DNA from: an uncultured delta proteobacterium
GTDB taxonomy: Bacteria > Desulfobacterota > Desulfomonilia > Desulfomonilales > Desulfomonilaceae
Direction of reading: 5' to 3'
DNA length: 64,000 nt
NCBI GenBank assembly: GCA_963789265.1
Contig: CAWBKB010000005.1
Location: forward strand, 448,001-512,000
Below are positions 2,925 to 10,572 of the stretch, piece by piece; positions within the stretch are counted from its first letter, which is position 1, and each line of letters begins with the position of its first letter. The notes beneath the pieces are model-generated. The model was not told where the DNA came from. It worked only from the letters and a program-made list of their open reading frames with translations, and made no database searches. Position numbers and translations under genes: made by a program.

Positions 2925-3056
2925 CGTTTGTTTGCCTCGGGGCATTTCTTTTGATAGTCTTTAGCTCAAAGCCGCGGGCCTTGCGGCAATCTACACGATA
3001 TGGCACACAGGCGAAATCCCATATACCTGTACCCGATTCCAGGGAGGTAATATCTA

Positions 3057-3368
3057 GTGTTTGGTATTAAAGATCTGTTGCAGCAGGCGCAAGGATTGCA
3101 AGCCAAGATTACTGCATTGCAAGAAGAATTGGCAGAGAAGACTGTCACAGGAAGTGCAGGAGGGGACATGGTGCAGGTCACGGCAAGCGGGGCTCAGGAG
3201 ATTGTATCCATAAAGATCGAAAAAGAGCTTCTTTCGCCTGATGACCCGGAATTCCTTGAAGACCTTATCGTCGCCGCGGTCAATGACGCGCTGAAAAAAT
3301 CCAAGGAAATGATGTCCCAGGAGATGTCAAAACTCACCGGAGGCCTTCGTATCCCGGGTTTGACGTGA
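3057..3368 (+). CDS. ybaB: YbaB/EbfC family nucleoid-associated protein
   Basis: GSAGGDMVQVT and LEDLIVAAVNDA motifs; SD GGAGG; upstream of recR. Confidence 0.95.
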   Translation: MFGIKDLLQQAQGLQAKITALQEELAEKTVTGSAGGDMVQVTASGAQEIVSIKIEKELLSPDDPEFLEDLIVAAVNDALKKSKEMMSQEMSKLTGGLRIPGLT

Positions 3369-3442
3369 CGGATAATTTAATGTCTTGTAGGAATTCGCTT
3401 TCAAACAAGTGACACCGTGTTTATAGCAGGACAGGCATCTAT

Positions 3443-3501
3443 CGTCATGCCCGCGTACGCGGGCATCCAGACTGGACCCCGGATCGGAGTCCGGGGTGAC
3501 G
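3443..3501. repeat. CGTC-type REP doublet
   Basis: CGTCATGCCCGCGTACGCGGGCATCCAG...CTGGACCCCGGATCGGAGTCCGGGGTGACG; same family at 17831-17902 and 31078-31161. Confidence 0.85.
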
Positions 3502-3589
3502 AATGGCGGGGGAAATGCCCGTCGGCACTAATTCGTTTTCTTTTTCAGCCCTTGCTTTTGAGAATCGGCATAGAACGGGATCCCCCTCA

Positions 3590-4180
3590 GTGATTGGTCC
3601 GCTGGAAGCCCTTGTCAAAGCCCTGAAACGGCTCCCCGGAGTCGGGGAAAAGACTGCCACTCGGTACGCCTTTTATATACTCAATGCTAAAAAGGAAGAA
3701 ATTCGCGAGCTAATCAAGACTATCAGCGATGTGAAAGGGAAGCTGCGTCTCTGTTCACGGTGTTTTCATTTGACGGATATAGACCCGTGCCCGATTTGCT
3801 CTGACATGAGAAGAGATGTCAGCCGACTCTGTGTGGTCGAAACTTCTGTTGACCTCATGGCAATCGAAAAAGCAGGCCATTTCAGAGGGGTCTATCACGT
3901 GTTACACGGACTGCTCTCGCCGTTAGATGCGATCGGCCCTGATGACATACGTCTTTCCGAGCTTATAGAGCGGGTCCAAGAAGAAAAGGTTACGGAAGTA
4001 ATTCTTGCGCTCAATCCCACTGTTGAAGGAGAATCCACTACCTCGTACATCCGCGACCGACTGAAAGAATCGGGAGCGATTGTCTCTCGCATTGCGTACG
4101 GCATACCTGTCGGCGGTTCCCTGGAATATGCAGATCCTCTTACCCTCTCCCGTGCCCTTGATAATCGAAAGGAACTCTGA
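3590..4180 (+). CDS. recR: Recombination mediator RecR (start uncertain)
   Basis: LPGVGEKTA HhH, C4 zinc finger CSRC...CPIC, TOPRIM CVVE, YHVLHG, NPTVEGEST. Confidence 0.95.
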   Translation: MIGPLEALVKALKRLPGVGEKTATRYAFYILNAKKEEIRELIKTISDVKGKLRLCSRCFHLTDIDPCPICSDMRRDVSRLCVVETSVDLMAIEKAGHFRGVYHVLHGLLSPLDAIGPDDIRLSELIERVQEEKVTEVILALNPTVEGESTTSYIRDRLKESGAIVSRIAYGIPVGGSLEYADPLTLSRALDNRKEL

Positions 4181-4307
4181 TCGACCATGAGTCTGACATT
4201 TCGGTGTCCGAGGCACGTGCTATTAGATTCTTGTTCGAAGGACTGGTACGTAACACTGTCTGCAAAATACTGCTAAGGCAACACTGGGACTGCGTGGAAG
4301 CCTTTAT

Positions 4308-4430
4308 CTACTTGGACTCTTTGTCCTCGGACTTTGCGGTTTTGGGTCCTTTCTCAGTTGAGAACTGACAACCACACCCGCATTGCTCCTGCTCTTTTTC
4401 CTGCTTTCGGTCTTGCTCTTTCTCGCTCAT
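4308..4430 (-). CDS. 40-aa charged microprotein with CGCGC motif (not in ORF track)
   Basis: SD AAGGAGG upstream of ATG 4430; MSEKEQDRKQEKEQEQCGCGCQFSTEKGPKTAKSEDKESK*; directly downstream of 4462-4656. Confidence 0.7.
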   Translation of the reverse strand: MSEKEQDRKQEKEQEQCGCGCQFSTEKGPKTAKSEDKESK

Positions 4431-4461
4431 CTTTATCACTTCCTCCTTCTCCGGATCGTTT

Positions 4462-4656
4462 TCACTTTTCTTTACGTTCTTTCAGCCGCTCTTCCACTGC
4501 GGCCAGTTCCTTTTTTAATTGGTCACGGTAATTTTCCAGCCACTCTTCTTCCTCTTTTGCAGTGTAGAAATGCCGGAACGAATGACCGCCGCCACCACAG
4601 CCACACGTGCATCCTCCCATCCCTGCAAATCTATGATGTGATCCTGGATGACACAT
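4462..4656 (-). CDS. Small Cys/His-rich protein with C-terminal coiled coil (DUF5320-like)
   Basis: SD GAGGTG; CTCGCGG motif; FxRxFYTxxEExExLExYxxxLxxELxxVEERL tail. Confidence 0.8.
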   Translation of the reverse strand: MCHPGSHHRFAGMGGCTCGCGGGGHSFRHFYTAKEEEEWLENYRDQLKKELAAVEERLKERKEK

Positions 4657-4680
4657 TCTTAATCACCTCTCTTCCGATTT

Positions 4681-4730
4681 GGGCTAGCCGAAGGTAGCCC
4701 TTGCGCGGTCGTAGTGACTGCGACTACGCA
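4681..4730 (-). other. Two RNA hairpins in the leader of the 4462-4656 gene
   Basis: Minus strand CGTAGT-CGCAGTC-ACTACG and GGGCTA-C-CTTCGG-C-TAGCCC (cUUCGg tetraloop). Confidence 0.55.
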
Positions 4731-4865
4731 GTTGAATGGTTGCATCACAATCCCAATGCTGCCTTAGCAATATCTTGTATAAGTAACTGATGCCCTCAAG
4801 CTTCCATCGCAACCTCCATAAGCTGTATTAGTAAATGCGCATATACTGAAATACAGGTGAAAAAA

Positions 4866-5294
4866 TTATTTCTCTTTCCCCACCTTTTCCATTTGGGTCC
4901 GCACCTTTTTCAACTCGTCCTCAAGTTCCTGCTCCAACCGCCGCAGGTACGCCAGTTCTTCTTCCCTTGATTTAACTTCCTCGCCCATAGTCCGGTCCGG
5001 CATCCGACAACTCCCCTCACAACCGCAACGGCAAACGTTAGAGATAACTTCGCCGCATTGATCAAGCGCGGCCTGGTCCACCTCGTAGGGTATCCAGAAG
5101 CCTTTGCGCTGATTCCGAACAAGTCCGGCGTGTCTGAGGATCTTGAGATGCTGGGATACCGCAGACGGGGTTATGCCAAGCGTTTGTGCTATTTCATTCA
5201 CGTACAGGGGTCCCCTTTGCTTCAGGAGATCAATGATCCTGATCCGAGATTCAACACCAAGGACTTTGAACAGTTCCGCTTCCTTGCGACACAT
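4866..5294 (-). CDS. ArsR/SmtB family regulator with C-terminal CRCGC...C and coiled-coil extension
   Basis: LFKVLGVESRIRII, SAVSQHLKILRHAGLV HTH; tail resembles the 4462-4656 protein. Confidence 0.9.
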   Translation of the reverse strand: MCRKEAELFKVLGVESRIRIIDLLKQRGPLYVNEIAQTLGITPSAVSQHLKILRHAGLVRNQRKGFWIPYEVDQAALDQCGEVISNVCRCGCEGSCRMPDRTMGEEVKSREEELAYLRRLEQELEDELKKVRTQMEKVGKEK

Positions 5295-5309
5295 GGAGTG
5301 TTTTTCCTT

Positions 5310-5357
5310 ATTTTAGTATCCGCTTAAATGCTACAATGACCTCCTGCTCCATGTCAA
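5310..5357 (-). promoter_or_regulatory. Putative sigma70 promoter and operator of the leftward arsR operon
   Basis: TTGACA (5357-5352), 18 nt, TAGCAT (5333-5328), overlapping the imperfect inverted repeat ATTTAAG-N6-CTAAAAT. Confidence 0.5.
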
Positions 5358-5388
5358 GATAATTTTCGGAAAGCCTGAAAAAAGTTTC

Positions 5389-5440
5389 TTGACACGCAAC
5401 CTAAGAATTGCAATAAATATATCAATGGCCATTAATGTAT
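5389..5440 (+). promoter_or_regulatory. Promoter region and ArsR-type operator of the selenoprotein operon
   Basis: TTGACA at 5389; inverted repeat ATATATCAATGG/CCATTAATGTAT (5417-5440, 10/12 match). Confidence 0.6.
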
Positions 5441-5480
5441 TGATTGCTAAATAGCAAAAAGAAGTCCTAAAGGAGAAACG

Positions 5481-5816
5481 TTGCCCGTCAAAGAACAAGA
5501 CAAACCTCTCGATCTCGAACAAAACCTGGGCATCGCAGCCTTTGTGAGCAAGAGCCTTTCGGATGAGAACCGCCTCCGAATCCTTTTGTCGTTGCGCAAC
5601 GGCAGGAAGACCGTCTCTACCATAGTGGAGGAGATGAATCTTTCTCAACCCCTGGTTTCCCATCATCTGAAGGAGCTGAGACGGTGCCTCCTGGTGAACG
5701 TGGAGCGCAAGGGCTTGTTCGTGTACTACGAGATCGCGGACGAGAGAATCATCGAAATAGTTTGGCAACTGGCGTATCTGGCAGCGGATCTGCTCTCGCA
5801 GAGAGATACCTTCTAG
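5481..5816 (+). CDS. ArsR/SmtB family regulator heading the selenoprotein operon (TsoR-like)
   Basis: SD AAGGAG with TTG start; KSLSDENRLRIL, LSQPLVSHHLKELR, VERKGLFVYY. Confidence 0.9.
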   Translation: MPVKEQDKPLDLEQNLGIAAFVSKSLSDENRLRILLSLRNGRKTVSTIVEEMNLSQPLVSHHLKELRRCLLVNVERKGLFVYYEIADERIIEIVWQLAYLAADLLSQRDTF

Positions 5817-5834
5817 CTTTTGGAGTGGAATCAC

Positions 5835-6290
5835 ATGAATAAGGGAAGAATTCAGGACCTTGTCGAGTCAATGGATCCAATTGACGCAGCCAAGGAGATG
5901 GCTGACGCAGCGAAGAAACTCTTCTCTCTTTTAGGAGAAGAAGCACTTCGCGATTTTCTCATCAATCTGATCGGAAACGGGGGCCAGGACAAGATTACCG
6001 GCCTGGTCCACTTATGACTGGCTACATGCATGGACGAAGGTGTCGATCCAAAAGCAATGTGCCAGAGTTTAGTGGAAAAAATAAGTCAATCCGAGCAACT
6101 GCGTTCGGTGACGGACCCGCAGATTCTTATTCTGTTTGAGGACTGGCTGGAAGAACTGGAAAAGGAGGCAGTGAGTGTGATTGAGCGTGGAGGCCCCACT
6201 GCCCCCGAAGACCTGTCCAGAGAGTTGGGTTTATCACAATCCGGCTCGATGTTCCTCATTACGAAGCTCAAAAGAGACGGCAAGATATAG
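5835..6290 (+). CDS. tsoA: Selenoprotein with LULATC motif and C-terminal wHTH-like region (151 aa; UGA=Sec at 6015-6017)
   Basis: ORFs 5820-6017 and 6030-6290 are in frame (TTA TGA CTG GCT ACA TGC ATG); long SECIS-like hairpin follows; the name is recalled from the NCBI LULAXC family. Confidence 0.85.
6018..6065 (+). promoter_or_regulatory. Bacterial SECIS-like hairpin for UGA 6015
   Basis: CTGGC/GCCAG, ACAT/ATGT, GC/GC, TGGA/TCCA, CGA/TCG stems; apical loop AGGTG 20 nt after the UGA. Confidence 0.8.
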
Positions 6291-6328
6291 GTTTTCATCG
6301 TACCCAGAGTTCCGGACTGGAGGCTGAC

Positions 6329-8089
6329 ATGGCAATCGAGGTGAACTGGAAAAGACTTTGGCTCCCGCTCTTGGCGATCACGGTAACGGTGGGAGTTCTC
6401 TGGTTCACAAACAGAGAGGTGACCCCAAGGGAACCAAAGTGGAACGACGTGGTAGTTGAAGCCAGGGAAGGCGGCTACCGGCTCATAAATACCGATGGAC
6501 TCAGGCAGCGGTACGAAGCAGATCCCCGGAGCATTTTGTTGGTGGATGCCCGTCAGGACTGGGAATTTGCAATGGGCCACATAAAAGGCGCGGTCAATTT
6601 CCCAATGGAACCTACTGCGTGGTCGAGATGGCGGAAAAGGGGCAAACTCGCGCAGGCGCTTGGTCCCGACAAGAATCGCTTCATCGTATTTTACTGAGCA
6701 GGACTTACCTGAGTCCGTAGCGACTCTGCCGCTCGTGTAGCGGTGCAACTAGGTTACAAGAATGTATATCGTGACGCAAAGGGGTTTCCAGAATGGAAGG
6801 CTGCCGGTCTTCCCATTGAAAGCATTCCTGCGGATCGGACAAGATCCGCATCTGTACCTGAAAACGCCGGGCCACTATACGGCTGGGCAATGCTCTGGAC
6901 CTTATTGGGTGTCTTCGGAGGCGGACTGGCACTCAACCTTACGCCGTGCGTTTATCCCTTAATTCCTATAACCGTCTCCTACTTTGGGGGCAGGAGCGGT
7001 CAGAGACGCGGAAAATTGGCAGTTCACGGTTTGCTGTATCTGGGTGGTCTGTCCGTGACCAACTCAGTGTTAGGGGTAGCGGCGGCTCTCACGGGAAGCC
7101 TGATGGGAGCGGCGCTTCAGAACCCCGTAGTGTTGGTGGTTGTCGCCGGTGTTCTGGTTTTCTTTGCCACAAGCCTCTTCGGATTCTGGGAGCTGCAACT
7201 TCCCCAGAATCTTGCAAGGGCAGCATCCAAGTCGTACGCAGGATACTTTGGTACGCTGTTCATGGGCCTGACTCTCGGTGTAGTTGCAGCTCCGTGTCTG
7301 GGACCTTTCGTCCTGGGGTTGCTTACTTGGGTGGCGAGTATGGGCAGCCCTTGGTTGGGTTTTCTCATCTTCTTCACGCTCAGCCTTGGGTTGGGAGTGC
7401 CGCTCTTTATCCTGGCGATGTTCTCAGGCAGCCTGGAAAAGCTCCCCGGTTCGGGTGAGTGGATGCTGTGGGTGAGAAAACTGATGGGCTGGGTGTTGAT
7501 CGGAATGGCTGCGTATTTTGTCAAACCTCTGTTACCGTCCTCGGCAGGTGTGTTTGTATTGGCGGCAGTAGCCCTAGCAGCAGGGTTGCACCTGGGGTGG
7601 ATCGACGGTACTCAAGCCGGTTTCAAAGCATTCGGCGTGCTGAGAAACGTGGTCGGTATAGCCAGTGTAGTCTTGGGGGCTTTTCTGCTCGGTTCCTGGC
7701 TAATGGTAGGACCTGGAGTCTCATGGCGACCGTATTCCGATGAAGCACTCGAGCAGGCCCTAAAGTCTAACAAGCCGGTAATCGTAGATTTTTCCGCAAC
7801 GTGGTGTACGCCATGCCGTGAACTCGAAGATATTACGTTTCGTGATCCGCAAGTGGTGAAACAGGCTAAAGACGGCTTCGTCATGGTCAAGGTTGACCTG
7901 ACCAAAAAGGGGAACCCGCTCTACGAAAAACTGGTCGCGCTATATGCGATCAAAGGGGTCCCGACGGTGGTTTTCTTCGACGGTCATGGCAGAGAACGTG
8001 CCGATCTGCGCCTGGTTGATTTCATCCCCGCTGATCAATTCTTGAGCAGAATGACTCAGGCAATGCAATCATGGAACTCGGGTTCATGA
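6329..8089 (+). CDS. tsoB: Rhodanese-DsbD(beta)-thioredoxin fusion selenoprotein (586 aa; UGA=Sec at 6695 and 6710)
   Basis: ORFs 6329-6697 and 6743-8089 are in frame: IVFY-U-AGLT-U-VRSDSAARVAVQLGYKNVY...GFPEW completes the rhodanese fold; then LTPCVYP, AAPCLGP and WCTPC. Confidence 0.9.
6727..6747 (+). promoter_or_regulatory. SECIS-like hairpin downstream of the tandem UGA codons
   Basis: GCCGCT-CGTGT-AGCGGT stem-loop; loop 21 nt after UGA 6710 and 36 nt after UGA 6695. Confidence 0.65.
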
Positions 8090-9404: not shown

Positions 9405-10572
9405 CTAACTCTCTCTCAGCGCGTCAACAATCTTCAGGCGAGCCGCTCTCCATGCCGGCAGCAATCCGCCCATGAAGCCCATTGCAATAGCGAAAGCCAT
9501 TGTGGAACCGGCAATGGACGGGGTCAGTTCGAATCCGAAGGCCAACTCAGAAAAGGTGCTCCAGTTCATTGTTGAAATGGTCAAAAATTGAAGTAGCGAA
9601 CCGCAAGCCACTCCTGCTGTGCCTCCGATCAAGCCGAGGAGGACAGACTCGGCCAAAAAGGCTACCAGGATGTTTCTTCTCCTGAATCCAAGCGCCCTCA
9701 GGGTGCCGATTTCGCCGGTGCGATTGGCTACCGCGGAGTACATTGTCACCATGGCCCCGAGTATGGCGCCTATGCTGAAAAACATCGTCGTGGCAAGTCC
9801 CAATATCCGGATAAACTTGGCCATCACTTCAGACTGTTCTTTGTAAAATGCGATCTCCCGCTTAACTTGTACCGGAGAGACGCGGATCTTTTTCCAGGCG
9901 ATTTTTCAAGTCCTCGAACGCCTTTCGTCCGGGCACTTTCAGTATTACGTCAGAATAAGCGGTCCTTCGGAACGCGGACAGCAACTGATCGACATCTCCC
10001 CACACCTCGGAATTAAAAGCTGTTTTGCCCGCGTCAAATACACCCACGACGTTCCAATCAGAAAGAGCGAAATGCAAGGTTTGGCCAAGTGAGCCGCCTG
10101 TGACGGTCTCCGCGATGCTTTTGCCGGCGATTACTTCTCGGGAACCCGGCCGAAAAGTCCGTCCCGCAATCAATTTCACTTGAGGCCTGAGATCCATGGC
10201 CTTCATCCCAACTCCTCGCACGACTACATTTGTCGGCTTGCCCGTCTTCTTTTTCGGCACGGTTACCAACACAAGGGCCTCTTTGGACGCGATGGGCCCG
10301 CCGCGCGCGTCTTCGGCTATTTCAGGCTGAATTTCTATAACCGCGGCTGAATCGCGGTCGATGACACTGGATACCTCTGTTTGCGCCGAGCCCCTCAGGA
10401 CTATGGCATTACCGGGAGAACCCGTGTCGATCAGAGTTTGTTGTAATCCCTGGGCTAACATCAGCACCGCAGCAAAGACAAAGGTGACAAGAGCCATGCC
10501 TCCCGCGGTGAGAATACTGGTCCATTTTCTTGTCCAGAGATTGCGGAAACTGTAGCTAAAAGGTATGGCCAT
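9405..10572 (-). CDS. FtsX/MacB-like ABC transporter permease (frameshift ~9873)
   Basis: YSFRNLWTRK; RTGEIGTLRALGF; GGLLPAWRAARLKIVDALR; removing one G joins the two ORFs. Confidence 0.85.

Follow-up and report, generated by a model that had tools for sequence, protein, structure and literature searches.

A conserved cassette of a cysteine-tailed ArsR repressor, a free-standing homologue of its tail and a CGCGC microprotein, with a putative long-range RNA helix around the two small genes

In a 64,000-nt stretch of DNA from an uncultured delta proteobacterium of the Desulfomonilaceae (GenBank assembly GCA_963789265.1, contig CAWBKB010000005.1, positions 448,001 to 512,000), hereafter called the window, we identified a cassette of three minus-strand genes, each of which specifies a protein with a CxCGC motif. 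The cassette is conserved, occurs mostly in anaerobic bacteria and is undescribed in the searches we made. We read it, with a rough probability of 0.5, as an autoregulated sensor of a thiophilic ligand that is held by thiolates and shared with small binding partners. The three genes are the following:

4866-5294, minus strand: arsR, encoding a 142-aa ArsR/SmtB winged-helix repressor with a cysteine-containing tail
4462-4656, minus strand: gene for a 64-aa protein made of a Cys loop plus a helix (Cys2, CTCGC, helix at residues 33-63)
4308-4430, minus strand: gene for a 40-aa CGCGC microprotein, with an alternative in-frame GTG start at 4439

The spacer between arsR and the 64-aa open reading frame (ORF) measures 209 nt, and that between the 64-aa and the 40-aa ORF 31 nt. 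The motifs occur as CRCGCEGSC in ArsR (residues 88-96), as CTCGCGG in the 64-aa protein (residues 16-22) and as CGCGC in the 40-aa ORF (residues 17-21). A sequence-only reading of this DNA had already pointed to three proteins with CxCGC; the ORFs and motifs are indeed at the positions it gave, and the motif is kept in relatives of each family. In a crude six-frame set of 5119 ORFs of at least 150 aa, taken from this one 6.06-Mb genome, C.CGC was present once (about 6e-7 per residue), and with such rarity genome-wide, three adjacent carriers are not a product of chance. Synteny and profile searches, made for all three ORFs, found each gene conserved.

The arsR product matches Pfam HTH_5 (E 7.4e-16; 58.2 bits, cut-off 22) and the NCBIfam ArsR/SmtB model NF033788 (84.6 bits, cut-off 55), and has the winged helix-turn-helix of that family. 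The more specific identity TsoR (NF045707) was considered for the tail-bearing protein and rejected, at 34.4 bits versus an equivalog cut-off of 115. A search of 5.8 billion protein clusters returned 1491 ArsR matches at E ≤1e-3 from 1560 candidates; the best 120 of the 1491 are 120-178 aa long, at least 59% identical and aligned over nearly the full length, including the tail. In an alignment of 29 homologues, C80, C88, C90 and G91 are invariant and C92 is present in at least 90%, while C96, the fifth Cys, at the end of the CRCGCEGSC string, is limited to the closest relatives. Judged by this alignment, the conserved site is C-x7-C-x-C-G-C (C80, C88, C90, C92). The classical sensing motifs of ArsR/SmtB proteins are, in a published account, an alpha3(N) CxC and an alpha5 DxHx10Hx2(H/E) (PMC11672702); both are absent by inspection of the sequence and of the 29-sequence alignment. 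The AlphaFold2 (AF2) model of the repressor (mean predicted local distance difference test, pLDDT, of 78.6) has a winged-helix core with alpha5 at residues 74-87, followed by a low-confidence loop (88-109) that carries CxCGC and by a single long helix (110-141) with a pLDDT of about 90. C80 is located within alpha5, and C88, C90 and C92 directly after it. The long C-terminal helix probably extends the ArsR dimer as a coiled coil.

The same layout recurs in the 64-aa protein, for which AF2 gave low confidence over residues 1-32 and one helix at 33-63. The sequence-only reading had remarked that the ArsR C-terminus mirrors the coiled coil of this protein, and the resemblance proved to be real homology, extending over the Cys loop as well as the helix: hhalign of a profile of 28 ArsR tails with the 64-aa family yielded a probability of 96.7% (E 4.1e-10) over 52 columns, in a register that puts the ArsR CxCGC on the CTCGC of the 64-aa family and helix on helix. 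Helical, repetitive sequence can raise profile scores; here, however, the Cys motifs fall in register and lie at an equal distance from the helix. The 64-aa protein also found the ArsR tails of eight distant loci by tblastn (E 1e-4 to 7e-8). On these comparisons, it is a free-standing homologue of the repressor's own tail. A co-fold of the ArsR tail with the 64-aa protein, run without controls, scored 0.24 versus a mark of 0.32 and weighs neither way on binding.

The family of the 64-aa protein comprises 50 homologues of 39-97 aa. Across an alignment of 40 sequences, M1 and C2 are invariant, C16, C18, G19 and C20 are found in at least 90%, and the segment LENYRDQLKKELAGVEER is near constant; the family consensus (CTCGCCGCGCG plus further Cys) is richer in Cys than the copy in the window, which has four in 64 residues. 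The ratio of nonsynonymous to synonymous change (pN/pS) of the gene is 0.37. There was no Pfam metallothionein match at E up to 1, and no NCBIfam match. DUF5320 (PF17253) was rejected as its family: the match reached 18 bits (E 0.0066; gathering cut-off 27) and covered model positions 40-98 only, and the similarity to the sole genuine DUF5320 protein of this genome, compared by hhalign, was confined to the helix (probability 50%). That genuine DUF5320 gene (L092:984-2943) specifies 108 aa with a Gly/Arg-rich N-terminal half and a helical C-terminal end, and is flanked by a NifX-like ORF on one side and an Mrp/NBP35-like P-loop ATPase ORF on the other, neighbours that we identified by eye. Homologues of the 64-aa protein are named "hypothetical protein" in the databases, save three JGI records (P0004, P0015 and P0017) called "glutathione S-transferase", a name unsupported by their sequence.

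Within the taxonomic family of the host, the 64-aa gene was found in nine of 70 genomes, the window's included, distributed over six of 26 genera. It is followed by an intact 40-aa ORF at six of these nine loci (the window, L002, L003, L004, L006 and L007), where the ORF is the last gene of the cassette, is 65-78% identical and keeps CGCGC. We did not detect it at L005, which offers only 206 nt of flank, nor at L009. At L008 (1635-1757, plus strand), the ORF is broken: Tyr has replaced the first Cys, and a TGA coincides exactly with the codon for the third; most simply, this is a decaying copy.

The microprotein has three Cys in its 40 residues, is rich in Lys and Glu, and is preceded by the Shine-Dalgarno sequence AAGGAGG, 11 nt before the ATG. 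In an alignment of seven loci, the variable columns at codon positions one, two and three number 12 of 29, 10 of 30 and 25 of 30, respectively, while the other two frames give a shifted pattern; the pooled pN/pS is 0.32, and all length differences are of 12 or 24 nt, in frame. From these signatures, the 40-aa ORF is a real gene under purifying selection along its whole length. A word-based search of the 5.8 billion protein clusters yielded only two matching database proteins, so that gene callers almost never report it. With an 18-member profile that included the distant loci, 34 representatives of 30-77 aa were retrieved among 1.84 billion; CGCGC is present in 33 of them and CCCGC in the remaining one, all are rich in Lys and Glu, and many end in a KG.KT.KPE.KK-like tail. 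Neither Pfam, metallothioneins included (searched with the 43-aa form at E up to 10), nor NCBIfam returned a match. Nine sequencing runs were looked through for expression of the cassette; none was listed as holding its RNA, and the highest share in DNA was 0.25. The sequence-only reading, which had presented this ORF as an unannotated microprotein with a strong Shine-Dalgarno sequence and had let its case hang on conservation or translation of the ORF and on CxCGC in the homologues, is borne out as to the conservation and the motif.

It is very unlikely that the 40-aa ORF yields no functional protein, being instead a leader-like ORF whose Cys codons sense cysteine supply or a fortuitous ORF within structured RNA. 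Such an origin could account for the micro-ORF situated 49 nt ahead of an acyl-CoA dehydrogenase (ACAD) gene at the distant locus L032, for the fact that CGCGC alone is invariant across the family and for the in-frame TGA at L008; however, elsewhere the ORF comes last, or directly after arsR or the 64-aa gene, rather than before a regulated gene, and it has its own strong Shine-Dalgarno sequence, the signs of selection listed above (pN/pS, third-position bias, in-frame indels) and a charged C-terminal pattern that recurs in distant members. The class of leader-peptide attenuators was rejected on the cassette-last position and the whole-length selection, L032 being the only locus where the ORF precedes a gene.

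To survey the cassette more widely, we scanned species genomes with the ArsR alignment. From the 445 related stretches found, we retained the best 80; 32 of these 80 (L012-L043) match the window ArsR through the Cys motif, that is, to query residue 92 or beyond. They span Thermodesulfobacteriota, Nitrospinaceae, WOR-3, Eubacteriales, Deferrimicrobia, Syntrophobacterales, an Actinobacteria metagenome-assembled genome and others. Three of the 32 end at or just past arsR and could not show downstream genes. Downstream of arsR, and on the same strand, we found:

18 of 32 loci: a homologue of the 64-aa protein
11 of 32 loci: a CGCGC micro-ORF of 30-50 aa (in L038, the motif is the variant CGCCC)
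6 of 32 loci: an ACAD 60-72% identical to that of family locus L004 (100% in L013)

In the ORF listing, CxCxC was seen in 14 of the 18 downstream 64-aa homologues. Among the loci that lack the small genes, arsR is followed on the same strand by a split ArsP_1-type permease gene in two (L034 and L041) and by the gene for a major facilitator superfamily (MFS) transporter in one (L026). All other neighbours vary between loci (95 ORFs scanned), and by this comparison of gene order the cassette is a self-contained unit set in varied contexts. Small Cys-rich ORFs beside a flavoenzyme, as at some of these loci, might also bring to mind precursors of ribosomally made, post-translationally modified peptides, tailored by the ACAD-like enzyme. 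This we find barely credible: the enzyme is missing from 26 of the 32 loci, there is no recurrent cyclase, radical-SAM maturase, protease or exporter, and the 64-aa protein shows homology to a regulator's tail.

The 209-nt spacer between arsR and the 64-aa gene retains a trace of the ACAD:

4748-4789, minus strand: remnant of a deleted ACAD gene, its last 14 codons (QLLIQDIAKAALGL) plus the stop

When the 383-aa ACAD of L004 was compared with the window spacer by tblastn, residues 370-383 matched with 86% identity (E 9e-5). An intact 383-aa ACAD is extant between arsR and the small genes in L004, L006, L009 and L013 (all three ACAD Pfam domains are present in L004 and L009; for L006 and L013 we relied on tblastn and ORF length), and fragments persist in L003, L007 and L008. 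As these related loci indicate, an ACAD gene once stood between arsR and the small genes in the lineage of the window and has since been deleted. The enzyme reaches no NCBIfam equivalog cut-off; the best model, for acryloyl-CoA reductase, gave 312 bits (cut-off 640). The WOR-3 loci L027, L028 and L036 carry a second, more canonical ACAD gene 1-3 kb upstream of arsR, on the same strand, the product of which is 35-39% identical to the cassette enzyme. Near the cassette of L006 (242-363), about 40 consecutive Gly codons occur in one frame, seen as repeated tblastn matches.

The last 14 ACAD codons, which outlived the deletion of the rest of the gene, form the 5' arm of an inverted repeat that brackets both small genes and would fold into a 32-bp helix in the mRNA:

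4746-4777, minus strand (mRNA sense): 5' arm of the helix
4263-4294, minus strand: 3' arm of the helix, beginning 13 nt past the microprotein stop

Over seven loci, 97.8% of 224 cells are standard pairs, versus 33-44% after displacement of the partner by 1-3 columns. Seventeen of the 32 pairs are unvarying, 10 vary on one side with pairing kept, three change on both sides, and in two the sole departures are unpaired cells. Among 500 shuffles, one attained the pairing or covariation score that was observed. The G-U pairs, which number 24 cells when read in the mRNA sense, would turn into C-A mismatches on the opposite strand, which points to RNA of the minus strand, and not to a repeat at the level of DNA, as the structure that is kept. 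The helix is present in the minimum free energy and centroid folds of 4250-4790 (z -6.1). As sources of the inverted repeat, genome-wide elements of the repetitive extragenic palindrome (REP) or miniature inverted-repeat transposable element (MITE) type were rejected, since the core arm motif has no copies in the 6.06-Mb genome other than these two and the 24 G-U cells point to RNA; terminal repeats flanking a small mobile cassette are an unlikely source. Rfam gave no family at E up to 1 on either strand of 3000-8000. In 15 distant loci, duplex folding of the flanks of the small genes (z -2.6 to +2.1) produced no convincing helix, L013 apart; the lowest z-scores were those of L013 and L040, and L013 holds the ACAD and small genes of L004 (the ACAD being 100% identical). 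The helix may thus be confined to the Desulfomonilaceae-like clade that had the ACAD. By analogy, it is likely a processing stem of the RNase III type, or a stabilising stem, bracketing the two small cistrons.

Candidate regulatory sites are found on either side of arsR:

5328-5357, minus strand: sigma-70-like promoter of arsR (TTGACA, 18 nt, TAGCAT; 10 of 12 consensus positions matched, by pattern only)
5312-5335, minus strand: upstream operator-like palindrome, read by eye, located 41 nt ahead of the arsR ATG and overlapping the -10 hexamer
4827-4850, no strand assigned: second operator-like 7-10-7 palindrome, two mismatches, directly past the arsR stop and ahead of the small genes

We searched for the palindrome as TTMAGTA-N10-TACTKAA with at most three mismatches; the copy at 5312-5335 has four and was therefore missed. 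The copy at 4827-4850 also emerged as a palindrome from a repeat search. In the 32 related loci, a palindrome occurs 33-140 nt before the start of the arsR match in 23, and at +325 to +452 from that start, directly past the arsR stop, in 25. It immediately precedes the micro-ORF at L016, and the transporter gene at L026. Palindromes at two fixed places fit autoregulation combined with control of the downstream genes, supposing that the repressor binds them. No terminator-like site was found in 4100-5500.

Beyond the upstream palindrome, the cassette adjoins, divergently, the Tso operon (plus strand), which is a known system. Its start, complete in 5481-8089, holds TsoR (5481-5816; 150.3 bits, cut-off 115), the selenoprotein TsoA (5820-6290; selenocysteine at TGA 6015-6017; 213.1 bits, cut-off 170) and TsoB (6329-8089; 995.6 bits, cut-off 805), a rhodanese/DsbD/thioredoxin fusion whose reading frame continues through two TGA codons, at residues 123 and 128 in the rhodanese loop FIVFY-U-AGLT-U. 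At L002, a locus of the same genus, no more than about 200 nt (L002:2543-2745) lie between arsR and an FtsX-like permease gene, whereas in the window the whole Tso operon of about 4 kb separates arsR from the FtsX-like permease gene (9405-9827); the operon was either inserted in the window or deleted in L002, and from gene order it looks like an insertion. At L007, there is no ArsR-like gene in the 663 nt upstream of its arsR. Since the Tso adjacency is absent from both related loci that reach far enough upstream, we take it to be incidental, and a functional link between the cassette and the selenoprotein operon was rejected. The cassette had been described as standing back-to-back with a selenoprotein operon, which is true of its position; the functional tie that this might suggest finds no support, as the adjacency is not conserved. 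On the other side of the cassette, ybaB-like (3057-3368) and recR-like (3503-4180) genes, recognised from their translations, converge on its end from the plus strand.

This neighbourhood bears on the idea of a persulfide or polysulfide sensor of the BigR/SqrR kind, in which the Cys residues would be linked by tri- or tetrasulfide bridges, with the small proteins as carriers of sulfane sulfur. ArsR-family persulfide sensors exist, the NCBIfam BigR model matches weakly (E 1e-6, well short of its cut-off), the hosts take part in sulfur cycling and the window cassette adjoins a rhodanese/DsbD selenoprotein operon. Nevertheless, that adjacency is not conserved and no sulfide- or sulfite-detoxifying enzyme recurs near the cassette, and the ArsR Cys presumably do not occupy the BigR/SqrR positions. 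We therefore consider a sensor of this kind improbable.

For the thiophilic-ligand sensor, which we prefer, the following course can be proposed. The repressor would bind the 7-10-7 palindromes at its own promoter and ahead of the small genes. A thiol-binding ligand would fill the four-Cys site, formed by C80 and CxCGC at the junction of alpha5 and the tail, upon which the repressor would release the DNA. The likeliest ligand would be a soft metal or metalloid, e.g., Cu(I), Cd/Zn, Ni, As(III) or an Hg-like species: three clustered thiolates suit trigonal As(III), Sb(III), Pb(II), Hg(II) or Cu(I), and, together with a remote fourth Cys, Zn, Cd and Ni. Once derepressed, the 64-aa protein and the 40-aa peptide would bind the same ligand as buffers or chaperones, and the 64-aa protein may pair with the repressor tail through its helix. 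Both roles had been suggested by the sequence-only reading, in the form of a metallothionein-like module for buffering or sensing or of an anti-repressor pairing through the coiled coil. The 32-bp RNA helix would set the expression of the small proteins apart from that of the upstream genes.

Several observations weigh against this course of events. In most loci, the cassette includes no gene for a metal transporter, a reductase or another detoxification function; the sole recurrent enzyme is the ACAD (downstream in six of the 32 loci), which the metal reading leaves unexplained. With so few Cys, four in the 64-aa copy and three in the microprotein, buffering would be far below that of a metallothionein. 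The plain palindrome pattern is too loose for genome-wide use and, taken alone, is not significant in the window (six matches, 3.5 expected), and a consensus scan found no sigma-70-like promoter ahead of the 64-aa gene. As for the RNA helix, the count of pairs changed on both sides was reached by 56 of 500 shuffles, and its seven loci are closely related (mean column identity 80%), the structure having been derived from one of them. Finally, four conserved Cys in mostly anaerobic lineages fit an iron-sulfur (Fe-S) cluster equally well.

This last point leads to the main rival, an Fe-S or thiol-redox sensor, where the Cys of the repressor and of the 64-aa protein would serve as ligands of an Fe-S cluster or of an Fe(Cys)4 centre, and the cassette would report redox or Fe-S status and control the ACAD flavoenzyme along with small cluster or electron carriers. 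Exactly four Cys are conserved in ArsR and four in the 64-aa family (Cys2 plus CTCGC), the cassette is found mostly in anaerobic lineages, its sole recurrent enzyme partner is of the FAD type, and the DUF5320 protein of the genome, weakly similar to the 64-aa protein, is encoded between the NifX-like and Mrp-like ATPase ORFs mentioned above. On the other hand, that similarity is limited to the helix, the microprotein has three Cys only, and transporters replace the small genes in three loci, for which a toxic ligand is the better fit; to our knowledge, moreover, CxCxC spacing is not a recognised cluster-binding pattern. On balance, we think an Fe-S or redox sensor rather unlikely.

Returning to the thiophilic-ligand sensor, the homology between the tail and the 64-aa protein raises, tentatively, a further possibility, about which we are doubtful. 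The sensory tail of the repressor might have split off as a separate gene, with the 64-aa copy and the microprotein then making up a thiolate relay that competes or pairs with the repressor tail via the shared helix. The cassette would in this way gauge the ligand load against its own buffer, the copy acting as decoy, chaperone or anti-repressor, and the RNA duplex would set the ratio of small proteins to repressor.

The sequence-only reading did not recognise a described system here, and our literature searches likewise turned up no account of the module: the review passages, titles and abstracts that they covered contain no description of the ArsR subfamily, the microprotein family, the tail-copy arrangement or the helix. 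New here are the third gene, the RNA helix, the ACAD history and the paired palindromes, the last three of which the sequence-only reading did not contain. ArsR/SmtB is the largest family of metal and stress sensors, and the putative sensing site and the tail of this subfamily, which is widespread in anaerobic, sulfur- and metal-cycling bacteria, were not found described. The cassette adds a conserved family of microproteins almost always missed by gene callers and shows clearly how a domain of a regulator can be duplicated to become a separate partner. Since the peptides are within reach of synthesis and the candidate operator is defined, the question of the ligand can be put to a direct test; should the ligand prove to be a toxic metal or metalloid, the cassette would provide a compact new part for biosensors. 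The RNA helix would be unusual in bringing to tiny protein genes the kind of bracketing known from rRNA.

Among known systems, SmtB/SmtA combines an ArsR/SmtB repressor with a bacterial metallothionein under its control. The cassette resembles it in having such a repressor beside small Cys-rich proteins that it probably controls, and in being self-contained while the surroundings vary. Unlike smtB/smtA, the genes are co-directional rather than divergent; the repressor is without the alpha3 and alpha5 sites, and sensing is proposed to occur through a C-terminal C-x7-CxCGC loop plus helix; and the small proteins have few Cys and no match to the metallothioneins of Pfam, one of them being a paralogue of the repressor tail.

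In the CopY/CopZ pair, the repressor gene shares its operon with a gene for a small metal-handling protein. CopY of Firmicutes has a C-terminal dimerisation and regulatory region that ends in a flexible CXC tail binding Cu(I) or Zn(II) (PMC11672702). Both repressors are thus winged-helix proteins with a Cys-containing C-terminal tail, but CopY belongs to the MecI/BlaI family and bears CXCX4CXC or a single CXC, whereas the cassette repressor is an ArsR protein. CopZ, too, differs from the 64-aa protein: it is a ferredoxin-fold MxCxxC chaperone unrelated to its repressor, while the 64-aa protein is homologous to the repressor tail.

SrnR/SrnQ of Streptomyces griseus is described as an ArsR/SmtB DNA binder with a small co-encoded metal-binding partner that has no known relatives (PMC7055735). 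There is no sequence relation between the two systems and SrnQ is not a copy of the SrnR tail; moreover, a complex has been demonstrated for SrnR/SrnQ, whereas the cassette is known from its genes. The same source gives the N-terminal CXXCGC of Escherichia coli HypB as a high-affinity Ni(II) site with thiolate ligands (PMC7055735). The 64-aa family, with its invariant N-terminal Met-Cys and its CTCGC, resembles HypB in motif only, since the spacing is CxCGC instead of CxxCGC and the protein is a different one, lacking a GTPase domain.

The 64-aa protein has in common with DUF5320 (PF17253) its small size and a C-terminal helix of similar sequence; indeed, homologue P0014 has a precomputed DUF5320 Pfam match, and a look-alike Atlas cluster is automatically named DUF5320. 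Genuine DUF5320 members, in contrast, have a Gly/Arg-rich N-terminal part, are devoid of the Cys motif and reside in another gene neighbourhood.

As regards the RNA helix, long-range RNase III stems bracket rRNAs and some phage or operon mRNAs. The helix proposed here is likewise a duplex of about 30 bp between the flanks of a functional RNA segment several hundred nt long. Unlike the rRNA stems, it brackets two tiny protein genes within an operon, and its 5' arm is the end of an upstream coding gene.

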